DNA of 64,000 nt, taken from IMG/VR virus record IMGVR_UViG_3300025133_000020. One strand, 5' to 3'. Below the pieces are notes generated by a model that was given only the letters and a program-made list of their open reading frames with translations, ran no database searches and was not told the origin of the DNA. This document shows positions 9,006 to 63,931 of the stretch, piece after piece. The stretch comes from a virus. Taxonomy: Duplodnaviria; Caudoviricetes. Both the position numbers and the translations under genes were made by a program. Every line of letters begins with the position of its first letter. Positions within the stretch are counted from its first letter, which is position 1.

Positions 9006-9047
9006 CGGTTTTAGCTGATATTTATATACAACAAACAACAAGGAATC

Positions 9048-9884: not shown

Positions 9885-9915
9885 TAGCCCCATATTTATA
9901 TAAAACAATATAAAC

Positions 9916-11765: not shown

Positions 11766-12198
11766 AAGAAAAAAAATAAGTAACGATAAGCCTCTTATCA
11801 ATGAGTATGATTTAACTAAATTAATGCTTAATAAGGTACGTGAAGGTATCATAACTGAAGAGAAGAATGATAGTATTGTTCTTGACGGACCTGAACTAAA
11901 ACAAGAGAGGGATAAGTTCGAAGAGGCTATTGGTGTTTTAGGTAACATCAAGGGTTATGGTGATTTGATTGTCTATCCATACGATAATAACGTAGTATGG
12001 AGTGGTGACTTCCATAATGGTTTAAGATGGGCTTTCAGTCTAAGAGAAAAAACTGAATTAGAAGGTGTTATGACAGTTGATGACCAAGAGTTAGAGTTGA
12101 TGGATAAGATAAAGAGATACGGAGATAGTTGGACAAATGAATGGGCAAAAAAGTTACGAGATGATTACAAAACGCAATCAGATGGGGGGCGACAATAA
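11755..12198 (+). CDS. hypothetical protein
   Basis: ATG at 11755; contains LINE/IITE motifs like the neighbouring head-type proteins. Confidence 0.55.
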   Translation: MGVRRKKISNDKPLINEYDLTKLMLNKVREGIITEEKNDSIVLDGPELKQERDKFEEAIGVLGNIKGYGDLIVYPYDNNVVWSGDFHNGLRWAFSLREKTELEGVMTVDDQELELMDKIKRYGDSWTNEWAKKLRDDYKTQSDGGRQ

Positions 12199-12577
12199 AG
12201 TTGTATGGGTATCCATTGGGGTTAATGTTTTACTTGGGGTAGCGTTAGTGCTATTCATAGCGTTCGGGAGAACGAAACCTATTGAGGAATATGATGCTGA
12301 GATAGCTACATTAAAGACCGAAAATAAAGGTCTTATTTCGGATGTGGATAGGTTAGAGAAGGACAATAAAGATTCTGATAAGAGGTACAAACAATTAACC
12401 AAGGAGTACGCTATAACCATGTCTGACCTTATTGAGAGTGATAAGATAATAAAACGATTAACAGAAAAAAGACCTACAAATGGGAAGAGTCCTTATGTTG
12501 ATAGCCTTTCTGATGATGCCATTATTGGCGAGTACACAGAGTATTTCAAAAGGAGAGCTAAGAGAAACAAAGAGTAA
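12182..12577 (+). CDS. membrane-anchored coiled-coil protein (i-spanin-like)
   Basis: One N-terminal TM segment followed by a coiled coil; overlaps the next gene by 98 nt in another frame. Confidence 0.45.
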   Translation: MGGDNKVVWVSIGVNVLLGVALVLFIAFGRTKPIEEYDAEIATLKTENKGLISDVDRLEKDNKDSDKRYKQLTKEYAITMSDLIESDKIIKRLTEKRPTNGKSPYVDSLSDDAIIGEYTEYFKRRAKRNKE

Positions 12578-13013
12578 TCCGCATACCTATCAGGATAGTA
12601 TCCCACGTGGTACACTTATAGGTACGGTGAATAGTCTTGGTGAGTTAATTCTACACTTACACGTGGAAGATGCTCGACTGATATTGACCGATTTATTGGA
12701 CTATGAACTTATAGTAGACAGTATTATGCCAGCGTATGAGAGTCGAGACTCCATACAACAAAAGGCTATAACCATCAACCTATCCAAGATAGCTGAATTA
12801 CAATTTCAAAGTGAGAACTGTGAGGAACAGAAACTCAAATTGGAAGGTTTAATTGCCAATATACGGGAAATCGGTGGGTTTAAAGACCTTACGATAGAGA
12901 ATGCGAAGGATGTCATAAAGAAGGAAAAGATAAAGAAGGGGTTAGCCTTTGGTGGTGGCACCTTGGGTGGTGTCGGATTAGGAATTCTAATCGGTTTTTT
13001 CTTAGCCAAGTAA
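12480..13013 (+). CDS. secreted/membrane protein with C-terminal Gly-rich TM (spanin partner candidate)
   Basis: N-terminal signal-like segment, coiled coil, C-terminal GGGTLGGVGLGILIGFF. Confidence 0.45.
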   Translation: MGRVLMLIAFLMMPLLASTQSISKGELRETKSNPHTYQDSIPRGTLIGTVNSLGELILHLHVEDARLILTDLLDYELIVDSIMPAYESRDSIQQKAITINLSKIAELQFQSENCEEQKLKLEGLIANIREIGGFKDLTIENAKDVIKKEKIKKGLAFGGGTLGGVGLGILIGFFLAK

Positions 13014-13023
13014 ATCAAAACTT

Positions 13024-13050
13024 AAAGCCTCTACCAAAGAGGCTTTTTTT
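13024..13050 (+). terminator. intrinsic terminator
   Basis: AAAGCCTCT-accaa-AGAGGCTTT followed by a T run. Confidence 0.85.
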
Positions 13051-13064
13051 GTGGGTTTGTAGCC

Positions 13065-13072
13065 TATTTATA
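13065..13072 (+). promoter_or_regulatory. TATTTATA motif, probable phage late promoter (representative copy)
   Basis: The same octamer lies a few to about 25 nt before starts at 9019, 9893, 14627, 25501, 35841, 40746, 42659, 46497, 51487, 52343, and on the minus strand at 4445 and 30424. Confidence 0.7.
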
Positions 13073-13091
13073 TGAGAGTGATAATAAAACT

Positions 13092-13343
13092 ATGGATAAT
13101 AGAAAGGAGAGAATATTAGAAGAGCTTACACAGTCCGACAAGATTGAAGTTAAGAAGTATGTACTTACATCTAGAGATTTGGAAGAGAAAATCAACAAGA
13201 TAGTCAAAGCCAAGCTGAAGAATAATAAGGAGATGGATGACCAAGTAGTTCAGATAACCAAAAACGTACTAACACAACTATTCAAAGCCCTATGGGTTAA
13301 GAGGTCGTTCTGGAAGTCAACCTTATCTAATAGAGCCACATAA
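13092..13343 (+). CDS. hypothetical protein (probable head-associated)
   Basis: TATTTATA upstream; ILEE near the N-terminus. Confidence 0.6.
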   Translation: MDNRKERILEELTQSDKIEVKKYVLTSRDLEEKINKIVKAKLKNNKEMDDQVVQITKNVLTQLFKALWVKRSFWKSTLSNRAT

Positions 13344-37901: not shown

Positions 37902-38903
37902 ATGTCCAAAATGTTACATGAAACGGTAAGAGCTAAGTTACTATCATATCTCACATTAAATGAGGTGATGGATGGTAATTGTGGTACGCATAATATCAAA
38001 CAATATATGTTTGAGGATGATAGTAGTTTCGACCCACTAGGTCATATAGATGCTGGTGATGGTGAAGTAATAACAGACCCTATAGACCCTAACCTAGATT
38101 GCGTACTAACATTTAGTAAGGGTGGTAGTAATTCTAAGTTGGAGTGGCCCCACTTTTCATTACCAGCAGGTTTTACTTGCCCTGAAGCTACAACCTGTAA
38201 AACGTTTGCGGCTGAACCAGGTCCTAATGGTAAAAAGTTTTCTGATGGCTCATCTTTATTACAAGGTAAAGAAGCCGAATTCAGGTGTTATGCGGCAAGA
38301 AGCCAATCCCAATACCCACCTGTGTATAAGAGTTCTCATAGGAATTTAGATTTATTGATGGGTGCCAAGAAAGAAGGTGGTATGGGGGCGATGAAGGATT
38401 TATTAGTGAGGTCTATAGAGTATCATGGGTTAGCTAGTAGAAAACTAGTACGAGTTCATGAGGGTGGGGATTTTTTCGTTAACTCTTATTTTCTGGCGTG
38501 GATGGAAGCAGCAAAAGAGTTCCCGAATATTTTATTTTATGCCTATACAACATCATTAAACTTCTGGTTACCCAATAGAGGGGCTGTCCCACCAAATTTC
38601 AAACTGATAGCTTCTATGGATAAGAAAAATGCTCAGACCATATTAGATAACGACTTAAGATATTCAGTCGTTGTTTATTCGGTAGAGAAGGCTAAGGAGT
38701 TAGGGTTGAAAATAGATGTTGACGATACGATAGCTTGGGATAGTGATGAAAATTTCGCATTATTATTACATGGTGGGCAACCTAAAGGTAGTGAAGCTGC
38801 TGCGGCACGTACAAAAAATACTAGAGGTGGAGTATACGATAGGATTAAACAAGCTTATCAAGATAATAGAGGTAAGAAATTAGATAGGGTAAGTTCACTA
38901 TAA
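37902..38903 (+). CDS. GP88-like protein
   Basis: FSLPAGFTCP...CYA...VRVHEGGDFF...FYAYT pattern. Confidence 0.55.
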   Translation: MSKMLHETVRAKLLSYLTLNEVMDGNCGTHNIKQYMFEDDSSFDPLGHIDAGDGEVITDPIDPNLDCVLTFSKGGSNSKLEWPHFSLPAGFTCPEATTCKTFAAEPGPNGKKFSDGSSLLQGKEAEFRCYAARSQSQYPPVYKSSHRNLDLLMGAKKEGGMGAMKDLLVRSIEYHGLASRKLVRVHEGGDFFVNSYFLAWMEAAKEFPNILFYAYTTSLNFWLPNRGAVPPNFKLIASMDKKNAQTILDNDLRYSVVVYSVEKAKELGLKIDVDDTIAWDSDENFALLLHGGQPKGSEAAAARTKNTRGGVYDRIKQAYQDNRGKKLDRVSSL

Positions 38904-38946
38904 TTAAGCACGAAATCAAATTATTTTCAAAAACTTTCAATAAATA

Positions 38947-38978
38947 CTTGCATTATCCAAATAACTTTTGTATATTCG
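38947..38978 (+). promoter_or_regulatory. strong promoter of tRNA operon 1
   Basis: 31 nt (38946-38976) are identical to 62070-62100; CTTGCA ... TATATTCG. Confidence 0.8.
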
Positions 38979-39040
38979 CACTATATTTAATAACAACGGG
39001 TGTATTATACCCAACTAAAGAATAGAAATCGGTGAAAACG

Positions 39041-39115
39041 ATGAGCATACATATTAGTTCGAATAATTGGAGACGCAATGTCACCATGGTCAGCTATTGC
39101 TCAGATTTCACTTAA
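39041..39115 (+). CDS. attenuator leader peptide MSIHISSNNWRRNVTMVSYCSDFT
   Basis: Lies between the promoter and a terminator; TGGTCAG (39087-39093) is complementary to the terminator 5' arm. Confidence 0.65.
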   Translation: MSIHISSNNWRRNVTMVSYCSDFT

Positions 39116-39141
39116 GGAAATAGAGCATATCTCGAAAGAGT

Positions 39142-39177
39142 AAAGCCCTGACCAGTAAAACGGTTAGGGCTTTTTTT
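39142..39177 (+). terminator. attenuator terminator upstream of tRNA operon 1
   Basis: AAAGCCCTGACC...GGTTAGGGCTTT plus T run. Confidence 0.85.
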
Positions 39178-39183
39178 GTATAT

Positions 39184-39255
39184 GGTGTTTGAAGCTTTAA
39201 GGTGAAGCGCTTGACTGTGAATCAAGAGAAGTGGGGTCGCTACCCATCTTACACC
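39184..39255 (+). tRNA. tRNA-His(GTG), atypical
   Basis: G-1:C73; CTTGA-CTGTGAA-TCAAG; two acceptor mismatches; T loop GTCGCTA. Confidence 0.65.
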
Positions 39256-39433
39256 CAAATTGTTATCTGCGAGATAACATGTTCTTTGACATCTTGGTAT
39301 AAAAATAGTGTATCAGAAAGGATGCGTTGTACTATTATAAATGGTATAGCACATCATAATTGATACATTGTATGATAAATCATACATGCTCGTGCTTATG
39401 GTATGAGTTAATGACTGATTTATCATACAAAAC

Positions 39434-39508
39434 ACAGGCGCATGTTCCAAGGCTGGCGATGGGGTCTCCAAAACCCTATGTGGTGAGTTCAATTCTTTAC
39501 CGTCTGTG
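39434..39508 (+). tRNA. tRNA-Trp(CCA)
   Basis: ACAGGCG/CGTCTGT acceptor; loop CTCCAAA. Confidence 0.75.
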
Positions 39509-39614
39509 CTTAATTTATAAACACTTTAGCACAGGTGATTATTATACTACAAAAACTTCTAGTGTTTTGGAGACTTTTCAGAAGTTAGTCATATTTACTA
39601 ATAAAGACAGTGAT

Positions 39615-40346
39615 ATGGAAAGTAAGAAATGTGGTAAATGTGATGCGTATAAACCCATTAACGAGTTTAATAAGAATAGTAGCAAACCAGATGGGTTGGC
39701 ACATATGTGTAAAACCTGTCATTCTGAATATAGACGACAACATTACCTTAAGAATAAGGTTAAGGTAATTAAGCAAGTTAATAGATATAGGGAAGAAAAC
39801 CCAGATAAATATGTATATAACCCTAAACCAGTAAGCGAAACTAACCGAATAATTAAACCTAAGAAGCACCACAGCTTCAACAAAAAAGCTGGAAGAATAT
39901 ATGAGGTTGGTTGTCACGTTTGTAACGTTAGGGTGTTTGCAAGTAAAAGTGAAATTGATGCTGGCGTAAATAAATTTTGCTCAAATAATTGTAGGTCTAA
40001 ATTAAATAAATCTAATTATCATCATTATCTTAGGGGGGTTAAAAAACGAGCTAAGAAGAAGGGGTTTGAGATTGATTTGACTGAAGAATTTTTGAAAGAC
40101 CTATTGGAGGTTACCCAAAAAGGTCTATGTTCCATAACCAATACCCCAATAATCGTTAAACACCCTAATGATAAAACTACGTTATTTGACACAGCATCGT
40201 TAGATAGGGTTGATAGTAATGAAGGGTATGTTAAGGGTAACGTACAGTGGGTTATGTTAGGGGTTAACTATATGAAAATGAAATTCAGTAATGATGAATT
40301 ACATAAAACATTAAGATTAATTAAAGAAAATTACAGGGAATCCTAG
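39615..40346 (+). CDS. His-Me finger endonuclease with Zn-binding N-terminus
   Basis: CGKC, CKTC, CHVC; ASLDRVDSNEGYVKGNVQWV. Confidence 0.7.
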   Translation: MESKKCGKCDAYKPINEFNKNSSKPDGLAHMCKTCHSEYRRQHYLKNKVKVIKQVNRYREENPDKYVYNPKPVSETNRIIKPKKHHSFNKKAGRIYEVGCHVCNVRVFASKSEIDAGVNKFCSNNCRSKLNKSNYHHYLRGVKKRAKKKGFEIDLTEEFLKDLLEVTQKGLCSITNTPIIVKHPNDKTTLFDTASLDRVDSNEGYVKGNVQWVMLGVNYMKMKFSNDELHKTLRLIKENYRES

Positions 40347-40360
40347 TACCTGTGCAAAAT

Positions 40361-40437
40361 ACGAGTATAGCTTATGTAGTAAAGCAGCCGTGGAGGTAGT
40401 AAGGTAATTCTAGATGGTGCAAGTCCACCTATTCGTG
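40361..40437 (+). tRNA. tRNA-like element, anticodon arm non-canonical
   Basis: ACGAGTA/TATTCGT acceptor, intact D arm and T-like arm; no 5-bp/7-nt anticodon arm. Confidence 0.45.
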
Positions 40438-40448
40438 CAAATAAATTC

Positions 40449-40535
40449 GGAGAGGCAAACCAACAGGCGGTGGTCGCACTTTGCTAAAGTGTTAGGAGTT
40501 AACGGCTCGTGTGGGTTCGACTCCCATTCTCTCCG
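40449..40535 (+). tRNA. tRNA-Ser(GCT)
   Basis: Class II cloverleaf, G73. Confidence 0.88.
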
Positions 40536-40545
40536 CCCTTGACTT

Positions 40546-40630
40546 TAATGGTGGAAATTCATACGGTAAAACAGCTAAACACTTCGGGATACCAAAAGCT
40601 ACCGTAGTGGATAACATAAAAAAAATATAA
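40546..40630 (+). pseudogene. 3' remnant of an HTH-bearing gene
   Basis: Encodes NGGNSYGKTAKHFGIPKATVVDNIKKI* with no start codon. Confidence 0.5.
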
Positions 40631-40718
40631 GGAAGAATAAACCAAGTCGGTCTACGGGTTGCTGCTTTGAAACCAGTTAGGTGTAACAGCCGTGAGAGTT
40701 CGAGTCTCTCTTCTTCCG
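40631..40718 (+). tRNA. tRNA-Ser(TGA)
   Basis: Class II cloverleaf, G73. Confidence 0.85.
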
Positions 40719-40770
40719 CCCTTGACTTTTCTGTACCTAGCACTATATTTATATCTAAAACGATATAGAT

Positions 40771-41427
40771 ATGGCTAGGAAACAGAAAACGATACACTAC
40801 ATCTACAAGACTACTTGTGAAGTGACAAACAGATACTATGTTGGGATGCATAGTACCAATAATCTGGAAGATGGTTATATGGGAAGTGGCAAACGATTGA
40901 GAGCTTCAATCAGGAAACATGGTGAAGACAACCACACCAAAGAAATAATAGCTTTCTACGATACAAGAGAGTTATTAGCGGAAGCGGAGAAGGAAGTTAT
41001 CACAGATGATATGGTTGATGACAAAAATTGTATGAATCTGATGGGTGGTGGGAACGGTGGCTTCATCAGTGATGAGCAACAGAGGTATCGTTCTGAGTGT
41101 GGTGGTAAAGCATTACATGAGAAAATGAGAACCGATAAAGAGTTTAGAGAGTTACAGGGTGAAAAGTTATCTAAATCAGTTAAACAGGCTCATGTTGAAG
41201 GTAAGATGAAAACTTGGAAGGATAATTACGATTGGACTGGTAAATCACATTCTGAAGAGACTAAACGTAAGATGAGTGACACTAATAAAGGTAAGGGTAC
41301 TGGTGAAGCCAATTCTCAATATGGTACCTGCTGGATAACCAAAGATGGTTCCAACAAGAAAGTAAAGAAATCTGAATTGGATGTCCATATAACCCAAGGT
41401 TGGGAAAAAGGCAGAAAGATAAATTAA
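40771..41427 (+). CDS. GIY-YIG (Seg-like) homing endonuclease with NUMOD3
   Basis: HYIYKTT...YYVGMHST..GYMGSG; HSEETKRKMS. Confidence 0.85.
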   Translation: MARKQKTIHYIYKTTCEVTNRYYVGMHSTNNLEDGYMGSGKRLRASIRKHGEDNHTKEIIAFYDTRELLAEAEKEVITDDMVDDKNCMNLMGGGNGGFISDEQQRYRSECGGKALHEKMRTDKEFRELQGEKLSKSVKQAHVEGKMKTWKDNYDWTGKSHSEETKRKMSDTNKGKGTGEANSQYGTCWITKDGSNKKVKKSELDVHITQGWEKGRKIN

Positions 41428-41428
41428 A

Positions 41429-41540
41429 AATGGTAACTGGGGTCTCCCATGTAATATTGAGGTTTTATCTAACCCAGAACTAGATAAGTGAGATTACCAT
41501 TAAAAAGCTGTTACGGTGTGAAAGACAGTTTGAGACACAC
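41429..41540 (+). ncRNA. structured intergenic RNA with two possible pseudoknots
   Basis: AATGGTAA/TTACCATT, TTATCTA/TAGATAA, CTGGG/CCCAG; AGCTGT/ACAGTT with GTGTG/CACAC. Confidence 0.4.
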
Positions 41541-41544
41541 ATAT

Positions 41545-41631
41545 GGAGAGGTGACAGAGTGGAAATGTGTCAGCTTGGAAAGTTGTAGCCTACGTTTATT
41601 CGTAGCGAAGGTTCGATTCCTTCTCTCTCCG
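41545..41631 (+). tRNA. tRNA-Ser(GGA)
   Basis: Class II cloverleaf, G73. Confidence 0.85.
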
Positions 41632-41649
41632 CCCTTGACTTTTTGGTAC

Positions 41650-41673
41650 TTAGGTTCGATTCCTGATATCCCA
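41650..41673 (+). pseudogene. tRNA 3'-half remnant
   Basis: TAGG-TTCGATT-CCTG-ATATCCC-A with no matching 5' half. Confidence 0.5.
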
Positions 41674-41686
41674 ACTAAATTAATAT

Positions 41687-41758
41687 GGTGTAGTTAGTGT
41701 AGTGGTAACACGACAGCTTGTGGTGCTGTTATCATGGGTTCGAACCCCATACTACACC
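41687..41758 (+). tRNA. tRNA-His(GTG)
   Basis: G-1:C73, canonical cloverleaf. Confidence 0.9.
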
Positions 41759-41781
41759 CGCTAGTGGTCTTTTCAATAAAT

Positions 41782-41856
41782 GGAACTGTGACATAATTGG
41801 TTTAATCATGCGCCCTGTTAAGGCAGCATATGTTGGTTCGAGTCCAACCAGTTCCG
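41782..41856 (+). tRNA. tRNA-Asn(GTT)
   Basis: Perfect acceptor and T arm; weak anticodon stem. Confidence 0.7.
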
Positions 41857-41869
41857 CGAAATTAAGTAT

Positions 41870-41942
41870 GTTCCCATGGTGTAACTGGAAAGCACTTCAG
41901 GTTTCTACCCTGACAGTGAGGGTTCGAATCCTTCTGGGAATA
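41870..41942 (+). tRNA. tRNA-Arg(TCT)
   Basis: Canonical cloverleaf. Confidence 0.9.
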
Positions 41943-41965
41943 CTAACATTTAAAAACTAGAAATT

Positions 41966-42160
41966 ATGGCAAGAGAACTATTACAAGAAGTAAAAGACTT
42001 CACATACGATTATGTGAAAAGGTATCCATATACCACTTCAGCGCCAATCGTTAGCTTATCTTATATGAGAGGTTGGGGTGATGGTTTAAGACATATGGAA
42101 CTAAGAGCTTTGGTTATCAAAGAGATGGACAGAGCGAAGAAAAGAATTAAAGAAGAATAA
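41966..42160 (+). CDS. hypothetical protein
   Basis: ORF within the tRNA cluster. Confidence 0.5.
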   Translation: MARELLQEVKDFTYDYVKRYPYTTSAPIVSLSYMRGWGDGLRHMELRALVIKEMDRAKKRIKEE

Positions 42161-42162
42161 AC

Positions 42163-42236
42163 GGGAGTGGTCAGGATGACACGGCTCTGAAAGGAGTTAT
42201 CCTAGGAGTTTGGGGTTCGAGTCCCCTTCGCCCCCC
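42163..42236 (+). tRNA. D-armless Phe(GAA)-like element (degenerate rearranged type)
   Basis: AGGATGAC/GTTATCCT stem capped by CTGAAAG, then AGGAGTT, then T arm. Confidence 0.45.
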
Positions 42237-42241
42237 AATAT

Positions 42242-42318
42242 TGTGCAGTAACCAGCATGTCTGATACACATGACTAAGGTAACGGTTGAAAATATCGGTT
42301 CGAATCCCTATTGCACAA
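42242..42318 (+). tRNA. rearranged tRNA-Ile(GAT)
   Basis: Acceptor-TA-ACC-[CATGT CTGATAC ACATG]-GGT-AACGG...-T loop; A73; weak T stem. Confidence 0.65.
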
Positions 42319-42324
42319 CTTTAT

Positions 42325-42415
42325 AGGCATATAGCAGCCCAACCTGATAAGTTGGAGAACTGTAGTTGGTATCTTGAGATAGCATCAAACGTGGGTTCGA
42401 ATCCCACTTTGCCTA
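42325..42415 (+). tRNA. rearranged tRNA-Ile(GAT)
   Basis: AGGCATA-TA-GCAG-[CCAAC CTGATAA GTTGG]-CTGT-AGTTGG...-GTGGG TTCGAAT CCCAC; A73. Confidence 0.75.
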
Positions 42416-42547
42416 CAACAATCCTCCCATTGCCTCTCATTGAAGCACACTTTGGGTTATAGTGATTATCAATGGATGGCGCCAGAAGTTGATATGAGTT
42501 ATAACAGATGTTTATGGTCATCTGGGTCCTTGCTTAAAACCATACTT

Positions 42548-42627
42548 CCAGAATTACCGAGCCAAGCTTATATCTTGGATATTCGTAGCGGTTGTTGCAA
42601 ACAAGGGTTCGAATCCCTTATTCTGGA
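42548..42627 (+). tRNA. rearranged tRNA-Ile(TAT)
   Basis: CCAGAAT/ATTCTGG; CGAG/TTCG enclosing CCAAG CTTATAT CTTGG; perfect T arm; A73. Confidence 0.75.
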
Positions 42628-42683
42628 CTGGAGGTTTACTTTTTGTACTTTAGCCTTATATTTATATCTAAACAATATAGATT

Positions 42684-43328
42684 ATGGCAAGAAAAGAAAA
42701 AAAGTACCACTACATATACAAAACGACTAATTTACTTAGTGGTAGATATTACATAGGAATGCATAGCACCGATAACCTTGACGATGGTTATATGGGTTCT
42801 GGAACAAGACTTAGGCGTTCACTTAATAAACATGGTGAGGAAAATCATAAGGTCGAGTTCTTAGAGTTCCTTGATACTCGGAAAGAGTTGAAGGAACGGG
42901 AAGCTGAAATAGTTAACCTTAATGAGGTAGCCAAAGTGGACTGTATGAATCTGAAGGTGGGTGGTGAAGGTGGGTTATCGAGTGAAGAACACAAGGTAGC
43001 ATTTATAAATGCTGGTATTGTGGGTAGAGAATCCTTTAGGGATAAACTAACAAATGATAAGGAATTCCGTAAGAGACATATAGATATGTTTACTGGGATG
43101 GTAAAGGAACGTCACGCTTCTGGTGAAGTTAATTACAATACGTTTGAAGGTAAAACGCATACAGAGGAAACTAAAGAGAAGATGAGGAAGTCTAAGAACG
43201 TAGGTAAAGCTAACTCACAATACGGCACTTGTTGGATAATCAGAGATGGTGATAATAAGAAGATAAATAAAGAAGACCTTAACGAATATCTTGATAAAGG
43301 TTGGGTTAAGGGTCGTAAAATGAAATAA
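42684..43328 (+). CDS. GIY-YIG (Seg-like) homing endonuclease with NUMOD3
   Basis: Paralog of 40771. Confidence 0.85.
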   Translation: MARKEKKYHYIYKTTNLLSGRYYIGMHSTDNLDDGYMGSGTRLRRSLNKHGEENHKVEFLEFLDTRKELKEREAEIVNLNEVAKVDCMNLKVGGEGGLSSEEHKVAFINAGIVGRESFRDKLTNDKEFRKRHIDMFTGMVKERHASGEVNYNTFEGKTHTEETKEKMRKSKNVGKANSQYGTCWIIRDGDNKKINKEDLNEYLDKGWVKGRKMK

Positions 43329-43333
43329 TATAT

Positions 43334-43405
43334 CGCGGGGTGGAGCAGTAGTAGCTCGTTAGGCTCATAACCTAGAGGTCGAAGGTGCAAATCCTTCTCC
43401 CGCTT
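43334..43405 (+). tRNA. tRNA-Met(CAT), initiator-like
   Basis: C1-U72 mismatch, CGCGGGG acceptor. Confidence 0.8.
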
Positions 43406-43416
43406 CTAAAACATAT

Positions 43417-43503
43417 CGCGGATATGAAGGCTGGTGGTGATGCTTGGGTAGTCTCATAAGCTACTATCGTAATGATGTATAGGTTCGATTCCTATATCCG
43501 CAA
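43417..43503 (+). tRNA. tRNA-Met(CAT), initiator-like with long variable arm
   Basis: C1-A72 mismatch; extra ATCG-TAA-TGAT arm. Confidence 0.75.
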
Positions 43504-43508
43504 CTAAA

Positions 43509-43817
43509 GGGGGTGACCGAGTTCTGGGAGACTCAACCTTAAAGCACGAAAATGGTCGTGAGGCAGTAACATGTCGGTCAATAGTAATTTCAATCTTTCC
43601 CACGGTTTACAGAATGCACCTATAGCGACCAAAGTTCTTTTGGTGGTGAATAAAAACAAGCAAGGGAAGCAAGCTCTCCAAGAAAGATTGACCCGATGAA
43701 ATATCGACTTAGTAAGAGAGTAATCAGTGGATTTGATATGAAGCGCTGACAGAAAAATGCTAGACAGACGAGTAAACGGTTCCATTGATTATGTGGGTTC
43801 GAATCCCATCATCTCCA
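43509..43817 (+). ncRNA. second tmRNA-like / large Ala-type tRNA-like RNA (309 nt)
   Basis: GGGGGTG/CATCTCC acceptor with G3-U70 and A73, canonical T arm, highly paired interior; no ALAA tag found. Confidence 0.6.
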
Positions 43818-43830
43818 CAAAAAATTATAT

Positions 43831-43901
43831 CGCGGGTAGCTTAGTAGCAATCAGGTCTCATAAGCCTTGACGTGTAAAGGGAGCGTTACCCTTACCCGCA
43901 T
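43831..43901 (+). tRNA. degenerate tRNA-Met(CAT)
   Basis: CGCGGGT/ACCCGCA acceptor and CTCATAA loop; D and T arms are eroded. Confidence 0.5.
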
Positions 43902-43941
43902 CAAAAAACGCTTGGTTCGCATAGTGGCTGATTGCATAAAC

Positions 43942-44023
43942 GGATGAGTAGCCTAGTGGTCAGGCAACAGACTGTTAATCTGTGAGGGAAACTTCTACGT
44001 TGGTTCGAACCCAACCTCATCCG
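43942..44023 (+). tRNA. tRNA-Asn(GTT) with long variable arm
   Basis: ACAGA-CTGTTAA-TCTGT; GAGG-GAAA-CTTC extra arm; G73. Confidence 0.8.
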
Positions 44024-44067
44024 CACTTTTACTTTTATGTGTATATTTATTAACAAAGACAGTTAAT

Positions 44068-44502
44068 ATGCCAAGGAAAGTAAATGACGAATTAATAGTG
44101 AAGATGAAGGAAGATTATGCTTCTGGTAAATCTTCTAGAACCATAGCTAAAGACGTTGGTATTAGTAAGAGTACTGTAATGGTATATGTTAATCCTAAAG
44201 TATTGACACCCGAAGAGATTGAGGAAAAGAGGCGTAAGAATGTTGAAACTGTAACTAATTGGAGACGAAATTTAAAGAAGAGGGGTATCGACTATAAGGG
44301 TGGTTCATGTGAAGTATGTGGTTATGATAAATGTAATGAGGCGTTAGAATTTCACCACAAAGACCCAAATGAGAAGGATTTTGGTATTGGCGCTAACGGT
44401 CATACTAGGTCTTGGGAGAAAGTGAAAATAGAGTTAGATAAGTGTATGATAGTTTGCTCTAATTGTCATAGAGAAATACACGCTGGATTAATAGAATGTT
44501 AA
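44068..44502 (+). CDS. HNH endonuclease with N-terminal HTH
   Basis: CEVC..ALEFHH..VCSNCHREIH. Confidence 0.85.
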   Translation: MPRKVNDELIVKMKEDYASGKSSRTIAKDVGISKSTVMVYVNPKVLTPEEIEEKRRKNVETVTNWRRNLKKRGIDYKGGSCEVCGYDKCNEALEFHHKDPNEKDFGIGANGHTRSWEKVKIELDKCMIVCSNCHREIHAGLIEC

Positions 44503-44543
44503 CTCTCAGGTCGAGATTTCGAAATTCTCACTAGGAGCAATAA

Positions 44544-44618
44544 CCCGATATGGTGTAATGGCTAGCACGACACTCTCATAAGGTGTACGACACAGTTCGA
44601 TTCTGTGTATCGGGACCA
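44544..44618 (+). tRNA. tRNA with CAT anticodon (elongator Met or Ile2)
   Basis: Canonical cloverleaf with encoded CCA. Confidence 0.88.
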
Positions 44619-45012
44619 TTGACATTCTCAGATATTAGTTGTATATTGGTATTATGGACTTAATTACCGATAATAAAAGATTAGAATATCGTCACATAGT
44701 CGAACATGAGGGTGAGACGTGGGTTAGGAAAGAATACATGTCACCCCAATGCTTCGCATGGGAAGATGAACCAGATAGACTTAGAGATTCACATACCATT
44801 TCTTGGTATCCAATGGATGATGAGGATACTCTTTATGGTTATTACAGTTGTTCTATGGGTTGGTCTAAGGATGGACACTTACATAAAGACAACCCGATAC
44901 CAGAAATAGAAGTGGAATTCAGGAAAACCAATGGTAAAGATTTATGTTATTTCAACAACATAGAAACACCTCAATAACCCATATTGACATTCTCAGATAT
45001 TAGTAGTATATT
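44618..45012 (+). repeat. duplicated promoter cassette
   Basis: ATTGACATTCTCAGATATTAGT at 44618-44639 and 44983-45004, each followed by GTATATT and an ORF. Confidence 0.8.
44654..44977 (+). CDS. hypothetical protein
   Basis: ATG directly after the duplicated promoter. Confidence 0.55.
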   Translation: MDLITDNKRLEYRHIVEHEGETWVRKEYMSPQCFAWEDEPDRLRDSHTISWYPMDDEDTLYGYYSCSMGWSKDGHLHKDNPIPEIEVEFRKTNGKDLCYFNNIETPQ

Positions 45013-45018
45013 TGTAGT

Positions 45019-45351
45019 ATGGAAGATAAACAATTTTATTCAAAGTATAAGTTTCGAATTAAAGTGGAGCTTATTGATGGGGTTACCTATTATACACCAC
45101 AAAAAGCGGAATACCCAGTATTGTCTGGTGAATTCACATCTACTGAAGGTAGGAAAGTACCCATGCGAAGTGTAGATGGAAGATGGGAGCCAACACCAGA
45201 AGAATACTGGAAAACTGGCAAATGGCTCGACCTACCGATAACATCAAATGATGCGATGGAAAAAAATATTGCCCAAGAAGTAATCGACCATCACTTATTG
45301 ATGGAGAAGCTAGATAGTGGCATGTTCATTAAAGAATATTTAGAAGTATGA
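45019..45351 (+). CDS. hypothetical protein
   Basis: ATG directly after the duplicated promoter. Confidence 0.55.
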   Translation: MEDKQFYSKYKFRIKVELIDGVTYYTPQKAEYPVLSGEFTSTEGRKVPMRSVDGRWEPTPEEYWKTGKWLDLPITSNDAMEKNIAQEVIDHHLLMEKLDSGMFIKEYLEV

Positions 45352-45662
45352 GCAAAATCAAAGACTTCTTAATAGAGTACAAGAGTACCATAAACATACC
45401 AGCACTTATTGTGTTGGTCGTCTTATTCGATTCAGTTATAATACTCACTGAGCAGAACGTGAAACTAATGCTTGGATTCGACCTTTTCCTTTTCGTAGGG
45501 ACAATCGTCAATTATATTGGTTGGAAACTAAAGAATAGGAATGAGGAAGAGATAGAAGAAATGGTATGTAGCAAATGTGGTAAGACACCAGTTTACATAG
45601 CGTGTCCTGACCATTGTGAAGAGTGCTACATTAAGTACGAAGTAAACGAAAAAGTACTATGA
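45348..45662 (+). CDS. two-TM protein with C-terminal Zn ribbon
   Basis: Hydrophobic pair; CSKC..CPDHCEEC. Confidence 0.55.
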   Translation: MSKIKDFLIEYKSTINIPALIVLVVLFDSVIILTEQNVKLMLGFDLFLFVGTIVNYIGWKLKNRNEEEIEEMVCSKCGKTPVYIACPDHCEECYIKYEVNEKVL

Positions 45663-45964
45663 CCGAAGAAGAAAGAAAAAAAGGTTTGAACCATATGAAA
45701 GAGGTTCGAAGAAAGGTTCAAGAAAAATGGGAATCTACTGGGTTCCTAGATGGACTGGAAGGGCACATTAAAGAGAATATGACTATCTTAATGGAGAACC
45801 AAGAAAACGCTGTGATAAGCGAGAACCCAACTGGTATGACAAAAGAATGGGATGGGGTGTATTTACCTATCGTAAAACATGTATTCAAGGAACAACTGGC
45901 TGACCAGATACACACACCACTTGCGATACATGTGGCTAAACAATTATCAGGTCATACTTTTTAA
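45659..45964 (+). CDS. stand-alone homolog of the major capsid protein N-terminal region
   Basis: KWESTGFLDGLEGHIKENMTILMENQ...YLPIVKHVF resembles gp23-type N-termini. Confidence 0.55.
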   Translation: MTEEERKKGLNHMKEVRRKVQEKWESTGFLDGLEGHIKENMTILMENQENAVISENPTGMTKEWDGVYLPIVKHVFKEQLADQIHTPLAIHVAKQLSGHTF

Positions 45965-45973
45965 TAATAAAAT

Positions 45974-46053
45974 GCAGGTGTAACCGAGTGTAGCTACGAA
46001 CTACATATCCGTAATAGGAGTTGCAAATGTGGGTTCGATTCCCTCCACCTGTT
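45974..46053 (+). tRNA. rearranged tRNA-Arg(ACG)
   Basis: GCAGGTG-TA-ACCG-[TGTAG CTACGAA CTACA]-CGT-AATAGGAGTTGCAAAT-T arm; U73. Confidence 0.75.
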
Positions 46054-46066
46054 CTAAATAATAAAC

Positions 46067-46207
46067 ATGAGAGCATACACTAACAAGACTGATAAGGTAG
46101 ATAGTCGAAAATGCCTTTACAGCGAAATCAGAGCTAACGATAAAGCTAGAAAGAAGGCTGCAAGGCGAGAAGCAAAACAAGAGTTCGAATCTCTTGGAGG
46201 GTACTAA
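46067..46207 (+). CDS. small basic ORF ending in a tRNA 3'-half remnant
   Basis: 46 aa; the last codons are AAGAG-TTCGAAT-CTCTT-GGAGGGT-A. Confidence 0.45.
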   Translation: MRAYTNKTDKVDSRKCLYSEIRANDKARKKAARREAKQEFESLGGY

Positions 46208-46391
46208 AAATTGATATAATGGCAACAGTATATAAGATTGAGATTGAAGCAGTAAGTCCTTGGACTAATTATCCACCAGAAGTGGTGGAAGAGATGCTTA
46301 AAGAGTTGATAGAGAAACGTAGAGATGCGAAAGGTAGTCGAACCTTTCAAGATAACGTTAAGGTCAACGTAACGCGAAAAGCGTAAAATAT

Positions 46392-46470
46392 GGCGGTGTA
46401 ACCCGTTCAGGTTTCGACCCTGTTAACGGTAATGGAGTTGCAAATGTGGGTTCGAGTCCCACCTCCGTCT
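46392..46470 (+). tRNA. rearranged tRNA-Arg(TCG)
   Basis: GGCGGTG-TA-ACCCGT-[CAGG TTTCGAC CCTG]-ACGGT-AATGGAGTTGCAAAT-T arm; U73. Confidence 0.75.
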
Positions 46471-46507
46471 CCCTGAACTTTTGTACCTTAGCTGCATATT
46501 TATATGT

Positions 46508-47152
46508 ATGAGGAAACAAAAGAAATATCATTACATCTATAAGACTACTTGTAGTGTAACAAATAGATACTATGTTGGAATGCATAGTACAGATAATTTA
46601 GATGATGGATATATGGGTAGTGGTAAACGCCTGTGGCACTCATTTAACTATCATGGAAAGGATAATCATTCAGTAGAGATATTGGAGTATTATGATACCA
46701 GAAAGGGGTTGAGAGAACGAGAGGCTGAGTTGGTTAATGAAGACCTATTGAAAGAAGATTTATGTATGAATCTAAAGACAGGTGGTGATGGTGGGTTCGT
46801 TAATTTATCCGCATGTACTAAAGGTGGTCACGCCAGAGCTAAATCTACTAACCGCATAATGTGGGATGAAAATCCAGAGAAATATTTTGAAATCTTTTCT
46901 ACTAGAATGAAAAAAACGTGGGAAGACCCAGAATATAGAGAGAAGATGTTGAAGGTTATTAATTGGGAAGGTAGAGAACATAGCGAAGAAACCAAACAGA
47001 AGATGTCTGAAACCAAAAAAGGTACTGGCACTGGTAAAACTAACTCACAGTATGGTACTTGTTGGATAACCAAGGATGGCTACAATAAGAAGATAAAGAA
47101 AGAAGAGTTAAACGAATATATTGAGAATAGTTGGGTTAAAGGGAGAAAATGA
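46508..47152 (+). CDS. GIY-YIG (Seg-like) homing endonuclease with NUMOD3
   Basis: Third paralog of 40771/42684. Confidence 0.85.
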   Translation: MRKQKKYHYIYKTTCSVTNRYYVGMHSTDNLDDGYMGSGKRLWHSFNYHGKDNHSVEILEYYDTRKGLREREAELVNEDLLKEDLCMNLKTGGDGGFVNLSACTKGGHARAKSTNRIMWDENPEKYFEIFSTRMKKTWEDPEYREKMLKVINWEGREHSEETKQKMSETKKGTGTGKTNSQYGTCWITKDGYNKKIKKEELNEYIENSWVKGRK

Positions 47153-47188
47153 CTTGTTTCCCTCATATTAATTGTGTATCTTTGTAAG

Positions 47189-47776
47189 ATGGTTAAGATT
47201 AGTTTAGGTGATGGTTTATTTACCATAATTGATGATTCCAACTACGATAAGGTATCTAAATATACTTGGCATGTAACTCCAAGTAATTATGCTGCCGCTA
47301 CGATAGGTGGGGTTACTATACTACTACATAGGTTTATCATTAATCCACCCGTTGGTATGGTCGTTGACCATATAGATGGTGATAGGTTAGACAATAGGAA
47401 GAACAATCTCAGAGTCTGTACACAGGGTGAGAATCTTAGAAACCGACTTAAACATTATAGAGGTGGTACATCAAAGTATAAGGGTGTGAGTTATAATCGT
47501 GAAGCAGGTAAATGGTTAACTAGAATAAGGGTAGAGAATGTGAAATATGGTTTGGGGTCTTATCACGATGAATTAGACGCAGCCTTAGCTTACAATATTG
47601 GTAGTGTGTTATTATCACCTAAATTTGGTAAGCTTAACGTTATACCTTGTATAAACAACGAACGAATATTATCCAACTATACTTGTTCAAAATTGGTGAA
47701 GGTCAGTAAATTATCATTGGGTGTTACTAAGGAAGTATTAACCAAATACAAATATGAAAGAAAACGAAGAGATTGA
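47189..47776 (+). CDS. HNH endonuclease with AP2 domain
   Basis: VVDHIDGDRLDNRKNNLR; SKYKGVS...AALAYN. Confidence 0.85.
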   Translation: MVKISLGDGLFTIIDDSNYDKVSKYTWHVTPSNYAAATIGGVTILLHRFIINPPVGMVVDHIDGDRLDNRKNNLRVCTQGENLRNRLKHYRGGTSKYKGVSYNREAGKWLTRIRVENVKYGLGSYHDELDAALAYNIGSVLLSPKFGKLNVIPCINNERILSNYTCSKLVKVSKLSLGVTKEVLTKYKYERKRRD

Positions 47777-48068
47777 TTTATTAGGGACACTAACCCTATA
47801 TAAGAAGGGTGGTAGAATGACCCCAATGTGGTCAGGCTACTGGGGCGCTGCTGATGTCGATGGTGATTTACATTCTTGTGGGTTCCTATTCGATGAAAAG
47901 GAATTAGCGCTGGGTGAATCATGTGAAGCTCGTATGAGATTCTTATTCAGTTCACACGAAGCCTTCAACGTAAAAACTTCAGTAGGTGCAACCTTAGTGA
48001 TGAAAGAAGGTGTACGAAGTATAGGTGAATTCGAGGTCACCGAAATATTAAATGCCTCTATGGTGTAA
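47754..48068 (+). CDS. small protein resembling EF-Tu domain III
   Basis: GGRMTPMWSGY...GATLVMKEGVRSIGEFEV; the stop codon lies within tRNA-Arg(CCT). Confidence 0.45.
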   Translation: MKENEEIDLLGTLTLYKKGGRMTPMWSGYWGAADVDGDLHSCGFLFDEKELALGESCEARMRFLFSSHEAFNVKTSVGATLVMKEGVRSIGEFEVTEILNASMV

Positions 48069-48126
48069 CTGGATAGCATAAGTCTTTCCTAAAGATTTAG
48101 TTCGGGTTCGAGTCCTGGTAGGGGTA
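48054..48126 (+). tRNA. tRNA-Arg(CCT)
   Basis: Canonical cloverleaf. Confidence 0.85.
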
Positions 48127-48137
48127 CAATGCAAAAT

Positions 48138-48218
48138 GGTGGAGTAGTCCCGACTTTTTTCTAAATAGTTAAGGGTAATTGGAAGCTGCAAATGAGGGTT
48201 CGACCCCCTTCTCCACTT
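48138..48218 (+). tRNA. rearranged tRNA-Arg(TCT)
   Basis: GGTGGAG-TA-GTCC-[anticodon arm, loop TTTCTAA]-GGGT-AATTGGAAGCTGCAAAT-T arm; U73. Confidence 0.65.
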
Positions 48219-48259
48219 CAACTATTGACAATACCAAGATGTTTCTTTATACTTGTAGT

Positions 48260-48502
48260 ATGAAGAACAACTACATTACCCCAGAAGATATTAATAACGC
48301 CACAGATTCAGAATTTGTTGAGCTTATTACCCGTATGGCGAATAATTGCGCCAAGACGTTCCGTTTCCCAAGTATCACTCAACGTACCATTAGCACTAAT
48401 AATGCTATCAATTCCGCATTATGGGCGCAGCATCTTGTTGGTGATAGTAACCCATTCGAGTTCTTTAATGATATAATGAAAAGGTCAATCATAGCATCAT
48501 GA
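48260..48502 (+). CDS. hypothetical protein
   Basis: TTGACA promoter directly upstream. Confidence 0.5.
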   Translation: MKNNYITPEDINNATDSEFVELITRMANNCAKTFRFPSITQRTISTNNAINSALWAQHLVGDSNPFEFFNDIMKRSIIAS

Positions 48503-49059
48503 AGAAGAAAATACACATCGGTTGCGATGACAGACCATCAGAGACCACCGATATGGTGGAATCAATCCTAACCAACCTTAAGGTGCCATATGAAATCCTT
48601 GAGGAAACCGAGGAAGATGTAACAATAGAATACACACCACCCAAACCAACCCATACACACTCAGAGAGAGTGGAGAAAATGATTTATACGAAATGGGAAG
48701 GTAGTGGTTTCCTTGCTGGGTTGGAAGACGATATGACCAGACCAATGGCTGAGGTGTTCACAGAAGTGAGTCAATATCTATTATTACACACATCAGATGA
48801 AGATAGGGCTTCGTGGTCACACATAATATTCCCAACGGTTAGAAGGGTATTCACAGCTATAGCTAAGAGTGGTGATACTAGTAATTTCGATATGAACGTA
48901 TTCATACAGGAGTACTCGAAACGTCACGAAGAATTAGATAAGAAATTAAAGAAGGACCCACCAACCAGTTACTATGCTATAGATTTAGAGGCTGAAAAGT
49001 GTGCTATCATAAGCGATGAATTAATCAAGTTTTTCCTAGATGGAGTGCCCGAAGAATGA
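48499..49059 (+). CDS. protein containing a capsid-N-terminus-like segment
   Basis: KWEGSGFLAGLE...IIFPTVRRVF; paralogous to 45659. Confidence 0.5.
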   Translation: MKKKIHIGCDDRPSETTDMVESILTNLKVPYEILEETEEDVTIEYTPPKPTHTHSERVEKMIYTKWEGSGFLAGLEDDMTRPMAEVFTEVSQYLLLHTSDEDRASWSHIIFPTVRRVFTAIAKSGDTSNFDMNVFIQEYSKRHEELDKKLKKDPPTSYYAIDLEAEKCAIISDELIKFFLDGVPEE

Positions 49060-49444
49060 TTGTAATGGTGAACTGATTAAGGTTCGCAAATTCTACGTCT
49101 GTGAAGCCTGTTGTTCAGACACAATAAGTTTCGATGAGATTACCAAGATTGCTGCTGAAGGTAGAAACGTATTACAAAGCAAACCTAAAGGTAAATCCAT
49201 TGAGATAACCAACCCAGAGTATATGGGATTCTACCCGTACACATTGACCAGTAAAACAAAGTGGCGAGAGAACTACCAACTGAAAGGTAAGGACGGTAAA
49301 GCTGTGGGTGCATTGGTCTTAGCAGATTACACCAAGTGTAAATTCATAACCAGTACAGAACCCAAATACATGGCTCACCTACGACATAAGGATTATGTGA
49401 TTACCGTGAGTATACAGGAAGACGATATTAAATTCCATAAATAA
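49040..49444 (+). CDS. hypothetical protein with N-terminal Zn ribbon
   Basis: CPKNDC..CEACC. Confidence 0.5.
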   Translation: MECPKNDCNGELIKVRKFYVCEACCSDTISFDEITKIAAEGRNVLQSKPKGKSIEITNPEYMGFYPYTLTSKTKWRENYQLKGKDGKAVGALVLADYTKCKFITSTEPKYMAHLRHKDYVITVSIQEDDIKFHK

Positions 49445-49480
49445 TTTGGTAATCACGATTTAATTCCGTACCTTTGTAAG

Positions 49481-49810
49481 ATGCGCAATACCCCCGTAGG
49501 TGATATATTCTATCATGATAATACATGTGGTAAGGTTGATTGGGACTTAGATAGGTTTCTTGATTTCTACGTGGATGACGAAACGTTTGAGCGTGAACCA
49601 GTTTTGGTTGTCGAGGTTAAGGATATCGTACCAACACAACAATACGTGCATCAGCATAATATAGATAGCGTGTCAGAGGTCGGTAACGACACTGGAGCTT
49701 ATCTTGTACTATCTAAAGGGTTGTACTATGTAATCGATGGTCATCATAGAATTTCCAGTGAAATACGTAGAGGCGCAGCAACAATAACAGCATTTGTTTA
49801 TAAATTATGA
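49481..49810 (+). CDS. ParB/sulfiredoxin-like domain protein
   Basis: IVPTQ..YYVIDGHHRI. Confidence 0.6.
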   Translation: MRNTPVGDIFYHDNTCGKVDWDLDRFLDFYVDDETFEREPVLVVEVKDIVPTQQYVHQHNIDSVSEVGNDTGAYLVLSKGLYYVIDGHHRISSEIRRGAATITAFVYKL

Positions 49811-50190
49811 GCGTGAAAAGATTATTATGGCTTGATGATGTACGTGACCCGTTCCGTAATGATTGGCTTGTATTCTCACCCATTGAAGACCCGTATGACG
49901 TGGTTTGGGTTAAATCCTATAAGGAGTTTGTTGCTTGGATAACCGAGAACGGCTTACCTGACGGGATTTGTTTTGACCATGATTTAGCCGACTTCTACTA
50001 TGACCCATCACGATACCAAGAGACTGTTATATGGCATGAGAAGACAGGTATGGACTGCGCTAAGTGGTTGGTCGAATACTGTATGGATAATGATAAACCT
50101 TTACCTAGATGGAACATTCAAAGCGCCAACGATGTGGGTAAGGAGAATATTCAGAGATATTTAGTTAATTACCTTAAGAGTTGTAACTGA
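49807..50190 (+). CDS. cyclic-phosphate-processing receiver-like domain protein
   Basis: LWLDDVRDP, ICFDHDL, TGMDCAKWL, IQSANDVG. Confidence 0.65.
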   Translation: MSVKRLLWLDDVRDPFRNDWLVFSPIEDPYDVVWVKSYKEFVAWITENGLPDGICFDHDLADFYYDPSRYQETVIWHEKTGMDCAKWLVEYCMDNDKPLPRWNIQSANDVGKENIQRYLVNYLKSCN

Positions 50191-62025: not shown

Positions 62026-62070
62026 TTTAGCTACGAAACCGAGCTAATTTCAAAAAAACTTTCAAAAAGA

Positions 62071-63345: not shown

Positions 63346-63931
63346 CTTAAATGGTGAACACGATAGAATTTTTTTCGGTAGTGTTTACTTTTTATACTTT
63401 AGGTGTATATTTAATAGTATGAAGTATATACACACTAAAGAACAGATGGGGGATGCAGTGGCTAAATCTAAATCGATAGCTGGCATCTGTAGAGAGTTAG
63501 GTATTAAACCCTGTGGTGGGAATTACAGGACGATACACGATAAACTAGATTTGTGGAATATAGATACTTCCCATTTTACTGGGCAAGCACATAACCAAGG
63601 GGTGGATTTTAAACCATTTGGTAATAAATATGAGCTTGGGGATGTTCTCATTGAGAATTCACCTTATAAGTCTTCTTACCACCTTAAATCTAGGTTATAT
63701 AAGGAAGGGTATAAAGACCCTAAATGTGAGAGGTGTGGTATTAGTAATTGGAATGGTGAATCGATTACGTTTGAGTTAGACCACGTTAATGGTGTTAAGA
63801 GTGACAATAGGATTGAGAACTTAACCATTTTATGTCCTAACTGTCATAGCCAGACACCAACGTTTAGGAATAATAAGCGATAGTTGCCCGTTGAGGGCGT
63901 GTGGGTTCGAGTCCCACCTGCGTTACTTAAA
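63319..63931 (+). repeat. 33-bp direct repeat of the tRNA-Leu 3' half flanking the HNH gene
   Basis: GTGTGGGTTCGAGTCCCACCTGCGTTACTTAAA at 63319-63351 and 63899-63931. Confidence 0.9.
63419..63883 (+). CDS. HNH homing endonuclease
   Basis: CERC..ELDHVNG..DNRIENLTILCPNCHSQT. Confidence 0.88.
   Translation: MKYIHTKEQMGDAVAKSKSIAGICRELGIKPCGGNYRTIHDKLDLWNIDTSHFTGQAHNQGVDFKPFGNKYELGDVLIENSPYKSSYHLKSRLYKEGYKDPKCERCGISNWNGESITFELDHVNGVKSDNRIENLTILCPNCHSQTPTFRNNKR

Follow-up and report, generated by a model that had tools for sequence, protein, structure and literature searches.

What phages gain from carrying tRNA genes is a matter of decades-long debate, in which codon compensation, shut-off of the host, and evasion of anticodon nucleases have all been put forward. 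The locus described here raises a related question, namely, whether a phage may sense the very tRNA supply to which its own genes contribute. Ahead of a long tRNA array lie a promoter, a short open reading frame (ORF), and a terminator, and the first codons of the ORF are those that the tRNAs of the array decode. A reading made from the letters alone, without database searches (here referred to as the sequence-only reading), had proposed that this arrangement is an attenuator and a multi-input sensor of tRNA supply. We have followed up this proposal by folding, by codon statistics, and by comparison with related phages.

RESULTS

Setting of the locus and probable host

The locus lies in a stretch of 64,000 nucleotides, here called the window, which is a section of a large phage genome with a G+C content of 38-39% and with nearly all long ORFs on the plus strand. 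Close relatives of the window were absent from the INPHARED phage collection by megablast, and blastn returned tRNA-level matches only. The stretch occurs in DNA runs that are marine metagenomes, whereas no RNA run is recorded for 38700-40300. Mapping of four DNA runs against it revealed one variant strain only, which co-occurs in run X2 and differs at 18 positions and by 4 indels within 39082-39278.

The phage probably infects a marine bacterium of the phylum Bacteroidota. Relatives encode a TonB-dependent receptor and Por-tail genes, and the sequence upstream of start codons in the window is A-rich. Copies of a Bacteroidota-type motif, for example, at 27048, 33948, 37072, 49445, 53727, and 58778, likewise point to a host from this phylum.

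A promoter of the Bacteroidota type and a boxA-like site

The features of the locus are collected in Table 1. Bacteroides promoters follow the pattern of a -33 TTTG and a -7 TAnnTTTG. The promoter ahead of the array has a -33 element CTTG at 38947-38950 and a -7 element TATATTCG at 38971-38978, from which a transcription start around 38984-38986 is inferred. Matches to YTTG-N17-21-TAnnTTTG occur 15 times on the plus strand of the window and once on the minus strand, compared with 1.2 in shuffled sequence, and most of them lie just 5' of ORFs. A sigma-70 reading (-35/-10) was dropped in favor of the Bacteroidota motif. The observation of the sequence-only reading on the promoter, an identity of 31 nucleotides with a site at 62070, is accurate: the 31-mer has exactly two copies in the window, at 38946 and 62070, where none is expected. 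Similarity between the two sites extends to either side of the 31-mer and resumes at the terminators.

A further copy of the promoter, the third and diverged in sequence, is found at 32004 (32004-32648), followed by a boxA-like site at 32063 and then by tRNA-like units that have odd D-loops and anticodon arms and lack usable anticodons. Neither a leader ORF nor a terminator is present in this unit, which serves as a natural internal control for the operons proposed to be attenuated.

The motif GTTCTTTGA(A/C)AT is found 3' of all three window promoters of this family, the two sites other than that in Table 1 being 32063 and 62295, and boxA-like motifs also follow the terminators in relatives' loci L002, L009, and L021. 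With two mismatches allowed, the boxA-like motif gave 7 matches versus 4.8 expected, which is not significant. Its likeness at 39280 to the rrn boxA is presumed from the consensus of such sites, and an antitermination complex of the rrn type may be loaded here once the attenuator has allowed or ended transcription. As for the hairpin in the 5' untranslated region (UTR), hairpins of differing sequence occupy the matching position in L027, L040, L038, and L044.

Table 1. Features of the leader region, the tRNA array, and related loci (window coordinates unless another locus is named)
Feature	Position	Strand	Remarks
tRNA-operon promoter	38946-38978	+	Bacteroidota type; upstream stretch A/T-rich
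5' UTR hairpin	38998-39012	+	GGGTGT/ATACCC, loop ATT; in minimum-energy fold
Leader ORF, 24 codons	39041-39115	+	ATG 39041, TAA 39113-39115; A-rich upstream
Putative sensor run, 12 codons	39044-39079	+	Ser Ile His Ile Ser Ser Asn Asn Trp Arg Arg Asn
Putative antiterminator strand TGGTCAG	39087-39093	+	Codons 16-18; pairs with terminator 5' arm
Inner hairpin	39098-39127	+	Stop codon in loop; inside antiterminator junction; seen in folds
Intrinsic terminator	39142-39179	+	Stem 39142-39153/39162-39173; T7 at 39171-39177; terminator scan and minimum-energy fold
tRNA-His (GUG) with G-1, first of array	39184-39255	+	Rfam 40.8 bits; ARAGORN at relaxed threshold
boxA-like motif TGTTCTTTGACAT	39280-39292	+	Related motifs elsewhere; function inferred from rrn boxA consensus
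Remaining tRNA array	39434-48219	+	Trp, Ser x3, His, Asn x2, Arg x5, Ile x3, CAU x4; endonuclease genes interspersed
Endonuclease genes	39360-40346, 40771-41427, 42684-43328, 44068-44502, 46481-47152, 63419-63883		
ORF of ~57 codons	L021:12574-12747; L027:4518-4691	L027: minus	Also in L038, L040
Family D loci	L043 = G002 31300-36500; L044 = G003 7700-13200	Both reverse	

A leader ORF matched to the downstream tRNAs

The leader ORF was recognized correctly from the sequence at 39041-39115, and the 24-residue peptide that had been quoted is encoded there. The start codon, taken to be the ATG, is less settled and needs correction: the relatives have their ATG where the window has an in-frame GTG (39032), and the frame homologous to their leaders may start at this position. 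In the strain of run X2, a T>A change at 39112 is synonymous in the leader.

The central claim of the sequence-only reading was that codons 1 to 13 are drawn only from Met, Ser, Ile, His, Asn, Trp, and Arg, the same set that the downstream tRNA genes serve. We find this to be the case, also at the level of the individual codon-anticodon pairs put forward (AGC/AGT with GCU, TCG with UGA, ATA with UAU, ATT with GAU, AGA with UCU, and CGC with ACG). The probability of such a match, which it had suggested computing from codon usage, is low. The seven amino acids account for a fraction of 0.289 of the codons in the 48 long ORFs of the window, and at this frequency a run of at least 12 in a peptide of this length has a P value of 3e-6. 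When all 497 window ORFs of 20-40 codons on both strands were inspected, a run of at least 10 was found in a single one, the leader at 39041, with a runner-up of 9. Beyond position 13, 3 of the 11 codons belong to the set. In the leader, any given type of codon is represented by one to three copies only, so that sensitivity to a single scarce tRNA may be low.

Terminator and putative antiterminator

A terminator had been placed at 39142-39177, and a 12-bp stem with six G-C pairs followed by seven T residues is indeed located there. In the strain of run X2, a T>C change at 39165 converts a G-U pair into a G-C pair, which makes the terminator stem fully Watson-Crick. The terminator dominates the equilibrium fold of the full-length leader (P 0.91-0.97).

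As pointed out in the sequence-only reading, TGGTCAG at 39087-39093 is the exact complement of CTGACCA at 39148-39154 in the terminator arm. This segment forms the best duplex between ORF and terminator arm in the window (-9.3 kcal/mol), although the 7-bp pairing of the window alone is not significant against dinucleotide shuffles (P = 0.11). The folds also contain a small hairpin over the Trp-Arg-Arg-Asn codons. In the folds of the leaders, no anti-antiterminator (1:2), no conserved partner of the antiterminator strand, and no pause hairpin were identified.

Folding with the ribosome at different codons had been suggested as a check. We folded the transcript up to the appearance of the 3' arm and masked a ribosome footprint of 30 nt. 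Of the eight leaders folded, six, among them that of the window, have the antiterminator as their minimum-energy structure before the 3' arm is made. This fold persists when the ribosomal A site is on the codons of the run and is weakened or lost when the ribosome is on codons 14-30. For the window, the mean pairing probability of the antiterminator is 0.61 before the 3' arm, and a clear fall (to 0.13) is predicted only with the A site on codon 16. With the ribosome on the stop codon, the footprint model exposes the antiterminator segment again, most clearly in the longer relatives, which implies that termination in the fast state relies on timing or steric hindrance. Hence, footprint masking reproduces the switch that had been expected, whereas the stop-codon state deviates from it. 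The distance from the stop codon to the terminator stem is 16-32 nt in every leader measured, with 26 nt for the window. Physical obstruction of the terminator by the ribosome, as in pyrBI, was rejected on these grounds.

The downstream tRNA array

The tRNA-His gene starts 7 nt past the T run. This gap leaves no room for a further promoter, so that RNA polymerase can reach tRNA-His only by read-through. L021 and other phages share the first 26 nt of this tRNA without a mismatch. From here, the array extends over approximately 9 kb. With ARAGORN at default and relaxed thresholds and with Rfam, the inventory compiled from the sequence alone proved broadly right for His (two), Trp (one, weak), Asn (two), and CAU (four); the tRNAs for Ser (GCU, UGA, and GGA), Arg (UCU twice, CCU, ACG, and UCG), and Ile (GAU twice, of which one is weak, and UAU) were likewise recovered.

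The Ile (GAU and UAU) and Arg (ACG, UCG, and UCU) tRNAs are located at 42242-42627, 45974-46053, 46392-46470, and 48128-48219. When aligned in Rfam, the tRNAs of this array for Ile and those for Arg with ACG or UCG anticodons show no normal D arm but a long insertion past the anticodon arm, and their scores do not exceed the Rfam threshold. A weak tmRNA-like match at 43509-43820 is also below threshold (18 bits in Rfam). Between the boxA-like site and the Trp tRNA, a perfect inverted repeat of 14 bp (TGTATGATAAATCA/TGATTTATCATACA) with a loop of about 34 nt spans 39369-39430. A tRNA with a CUA anticodon (amber suppressor type) at 31568-31642 is solitary and lies outside the arrays proposed to be attenuated.

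Homing-endonuclease genes of the HNH and GIY-YIG/NUMOD3 types are found between the tRNA genes of both arrays of the window. The ORF at 63419-63883 was judged HNH-like by eye only, without a domain scan, and a duplicated tRNA-Leu 3' end is present 3' of it (63893-63930). Only one promoter of the phage's own type was found inside the array, at 47153. Given the 9-kb length of the array, its endonuclease genes, and at least this one internal promoter, the distal Arg tRNAs may escape control by an attenuator.

Orthologous leaders in relatives

Relatives were found via a GP88-like neighbor protein, the 5' end of tRNA-His, the small ORF between terminator and tRNA-His, and the leader motif. No IMG/VR locus was recovered for the GP88-like neighbor gene, and in a protein database this route led to relatives in which the corresponding array is located elsewhere. 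In a single metagenome scan, for which the promoter core served as the query, all matches were orthologues of the 62070 leader, and contig G001 stops short of the leader considered here. The resulting family A consists of the window leader and L021, L027, L038, L040, and L049-L058.

Eleven distinct orthologous leaders were obtained. Their frame is kept despite nucleotide divergence, each is followed by a terminator, and a His/Trp/Ser/Ile/Asn/Arg/Met array lies 3' wherever enough sequence is present. The runs of set codons are 15-18 long in the orthologues compared with 12 in the window; three of them were tested and gave P values of 2e-9 to 3e-8. Within the portion of the run common to all, the eight variable columns contain nine extra residue types, and none of these falls outside the set. 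Exchanges within the set may be chemically unlike (Trp/Ser, Ile/Ser, and Ile/Asn), and that such replacements nevertheless stay in the set argues for selection on codon-set membership rather than on the peptide. Some stretches of the peptide (IHI, NW, RRN, and GM) keep their order, and the C-terminal parts diverge freely. The Thr codon at position 3 was considered as a tracker of tRNA content and rejected, as it is part of the N-terminal motif in all families and is present with or without a Thr tRNA.

The pairing between ORF and terminator can be followed across the same leaders. In every leader, the strongest duplex with the terminator 5' arm is found just after the run, at codons 16-28, with energies of -9 to -16 kcal/mol. 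Six sequence classes can be distinguished among the family A terminator stems, and each class has a matching segment in the ORF, i.e., the two co-vary. Against shuffles, the P values are 0.0005 for L021, 0.001 for L040, 0.004 for L038, 0.0085 for L057, 0.034 for L058, and 0.11 for the window, and the Fisher combined P for antiterminator pairing over the six classes is 1.7e-8. In most leaders, pairing is best with the cognate arm or with one that belongs to its sequence class.

In relatives, a conserved ORF of about 57 codons lies between the terminator and tRNA-His (Table 1); it is missing from the window.

Related leaders before other tRNA blocks

Leaders of similar architecture precede other tRNA blocks. 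Family B (Cys/Val/Leu tRNAs) has matching runs of 12-14 in G002 and G003 and of only 5 at 62135 in the window, family C (Pro/Gln/Tyr/Thr/Gly/Lys tRNAs) has runs of 16 and 14 in L002 and L009, and family D (Phe/Asp/Glu/Ala tRNAs) has runs of 11 in G003 and 7 in G002. Family A leaders contain 65-77% residues of their own set compared with at most 16% of the B or C sets. When all leaders were tabulated against all blocks, the longest run in any other block's set did not exceed 6 for any leader. Jointly, the four family sets comprise all 20 amino acids. Comparison of leaders from relatives with differing tRNA content had been proposed as a test, and the leaders do change: there are four families for four blocks.

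An N-terminal M-x-T-I/V-N-N-I motif and the overall architecture are common to the leader families, from which we infer that the families are diverged copies of one cassette. This contradicts the earlier statement that the peptides of the two window leaders are unrelated, since the families in the relatives share the motif. The family B peptides resemble a membrane helix. The family D terminator of G002 is separated from its tRNAs by a second promoter and a gene of some 130 codons, suggesting looser coupling of family D in that genome.

DISCUSSION

We consider it likely that the region 38946-39179 controls a phage tRNA operon as a ribosome-mediated (leader-peptide) transcription attenuator, opening it when the codons of the run are read slowly. 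No expression data are at hand. The comparative evidence supports the earlier suggestion of a multi-input sensor of tRNA supply; regulated read-through is still an inference in the absence of RNA data. To our knowledge, coupling between transcription and translation has not been established in Bacteroidota, and we are aware of little work on leader-peptide attenuation in this phylum.

How might such a device operate? Transcription from the promoter at 38946 would produce a leader of about 200 nt that contains the ORF, the antiterminator segment, and the terminator, followed by the tRNAs. When a charged cognate tRNA is scarce, slow decoding of any codon of the run would stall the ribosome within the run. 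This would leave 39087-39093 free to capture the 5' arm of the terminator as it emerges, and RNA polymerase would then read through into the tRNA genes, past the boxA-like site. Upon fast decoding, the ribosome would pass the segment and reach the stop codon, the terminator hairpin would form, and transcription would end. A leader that is not translated at all would, on the folding model, allow read-through by default. The outcome would be a form of product feedback in which tRNA synthesis follows demand, for example, once infection has depleted the tRNAs of the host, and the sister cassettes would exert the same control over the remaining tRNA blocks.

Several observations could also be accommodated without a sensor of this kind. 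The terminator is strong and dominates the full-length equilibrium fold, the antiterminator of the window is weak when considered alone, and there are no expression data; a fixed, unregulated unit of promoter, small ORF, and terminator, whose constant leak sets a low level of tRNA transcription, would be compatible with all of this. We nonetheless regard it as unlikely, as it leaves unexplained why there are four block-matched paralogous ORFs, why replacements stay in the set, and why ORF segment and terminator arm co-vary. It is also conceivable that the leader gauges translation in general, i.e., overall ribosome or elongation capacity or shut-off, and not the supply of specific tRNAs. The leader has only one to three codons per type, the families do share their N-terminal motif and architecture, and an untranslated leader reads through in the folding model. 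Block-specific codon sets would be superfluous for this purpose, yet the sets are exclusive and kept by selection, which makes a general gauge improbable in our view.

We give very little credence to the possibility that the peptide itself is the product, either as a small protein or as a nascent peptide acting on the ribosome, with an incidental match to the tRNAs. The conserved order of IHI, NW, RRN, and GM and the membrane-helix appearance of family B might be taken to hint at it, but the replacements in the run are chemically unlike and still in the set, the four compositions each match their own tRNA block, and the C-terminal parts are free to diverge. Finally, the cutoff at codon 13 was picked after the peptide had been seen, with 3 of 11 later codons in the set, so that chance combined with post hoc choice has to be considered. 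Such an origin is hardly tenable in view of the P value of 3e-6, the uniqueness of the run among 497 ORFs, and its repetition in three further families and eleven orthologues.

Returning to attenuation by a sensor of specific tRNA supply, we lean, if only slightly, toward a broader picture. In large marine phages, probably of Bacteroidota, a tRNA set for 20 amino acids would be organized in four operons, each with a codon-matched attenuator, so that the decoding by the cell is measured block by block and exactly those tRNAs that fall short are replaced, e.g., after a tRNA-cleaving defense or a phage-induced shut-off. This would be the first classical attenuation of tRNA genes, with a product that is its own signal. 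If true, phages treat tRNA supply as a regulated, demand-driven resource, and the question of what phage tRNAs are for becomes directly testable. It would also bring genes for stable RNAs, viruses, and a host that is probably one of the Bacteroidota within the reach of leader-peptide attenuation, and it would provide small sensors, orthogonal by nature, that report the speed of decoding for as many as seven amino acids simultaneously.

The dense arrays with interspersed homing-endonuclease genes that we observe resemble the tRNA clusters of T4 and T5 and the tRNA arrays of mycobacteriophages, which have been proposed to replace host tRNAs lost to defense or shut-off (PMC5966550, PMC10264068). 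In full-text literature searches, we found no publication on a leader-peptide attenuator for the tRNA genes of these phages or for other tRNA genes. A possible precedent in E. coli, an attenuator-like leader of the tRNA-Phe gene pheV, was dropped, as the 105 nt upstream of this gene in K-12 contain no Phe-rich ORF.

Among cellular systems, the T-box riboswitch likewise involves a choice between terminator and antiterminator in a leader RNA, tRNA status as the signal, and translation-related genes as the target. In contrast to the proposed phage device, which reads tRNA status via an ORF, the T-box binds uncharged tRNA directly and without translation; a permissive Rfam scan of 38800-50000 detected no T-box. 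In the pheM-pheST operon of E. coli, a leader peptide controls phenylalanyl-tRNA synthetase. Here, as in the phage, a component of the translation apparatus would be attenuated by the supply of charged tRNA, but pheM has a single input (Phe) and the operon is protein coding and cellular rather than viral.

A likeness in layout, though not one based on sequence, exists to the attenuators of enterobacterial amino-acid operons. Some of these are multivalent, as in the ilvGMEDA, ilvBN, and thr leaders, and others have a single input, as in trpL, hisL, pheL, and leuL. Like them, the phage leader combines an ORF containing regulatory codons with an intrinsic terminator and an overlapping antiterminator, such that the position of the ribosome would decide the outcome, and like the ilv and thr leaders it would take several amino acids as inputs. 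There are also differences. Whereas the enterobacterial leaders use runs of a single codon, the phage leader has seven inputs with one to three codons each. Its antiterminator strand lies within the ORF, 5' of the stop codon, and the device resides in a probable Bacteroidota host. As no 1:2 structure was found in the phage leader, an untranslated leader should read through and not terminate. The enterobacterial systems regulate enzymes, whereas the phage device would regulate tRNAs, so that its product is the quantity being sensed.
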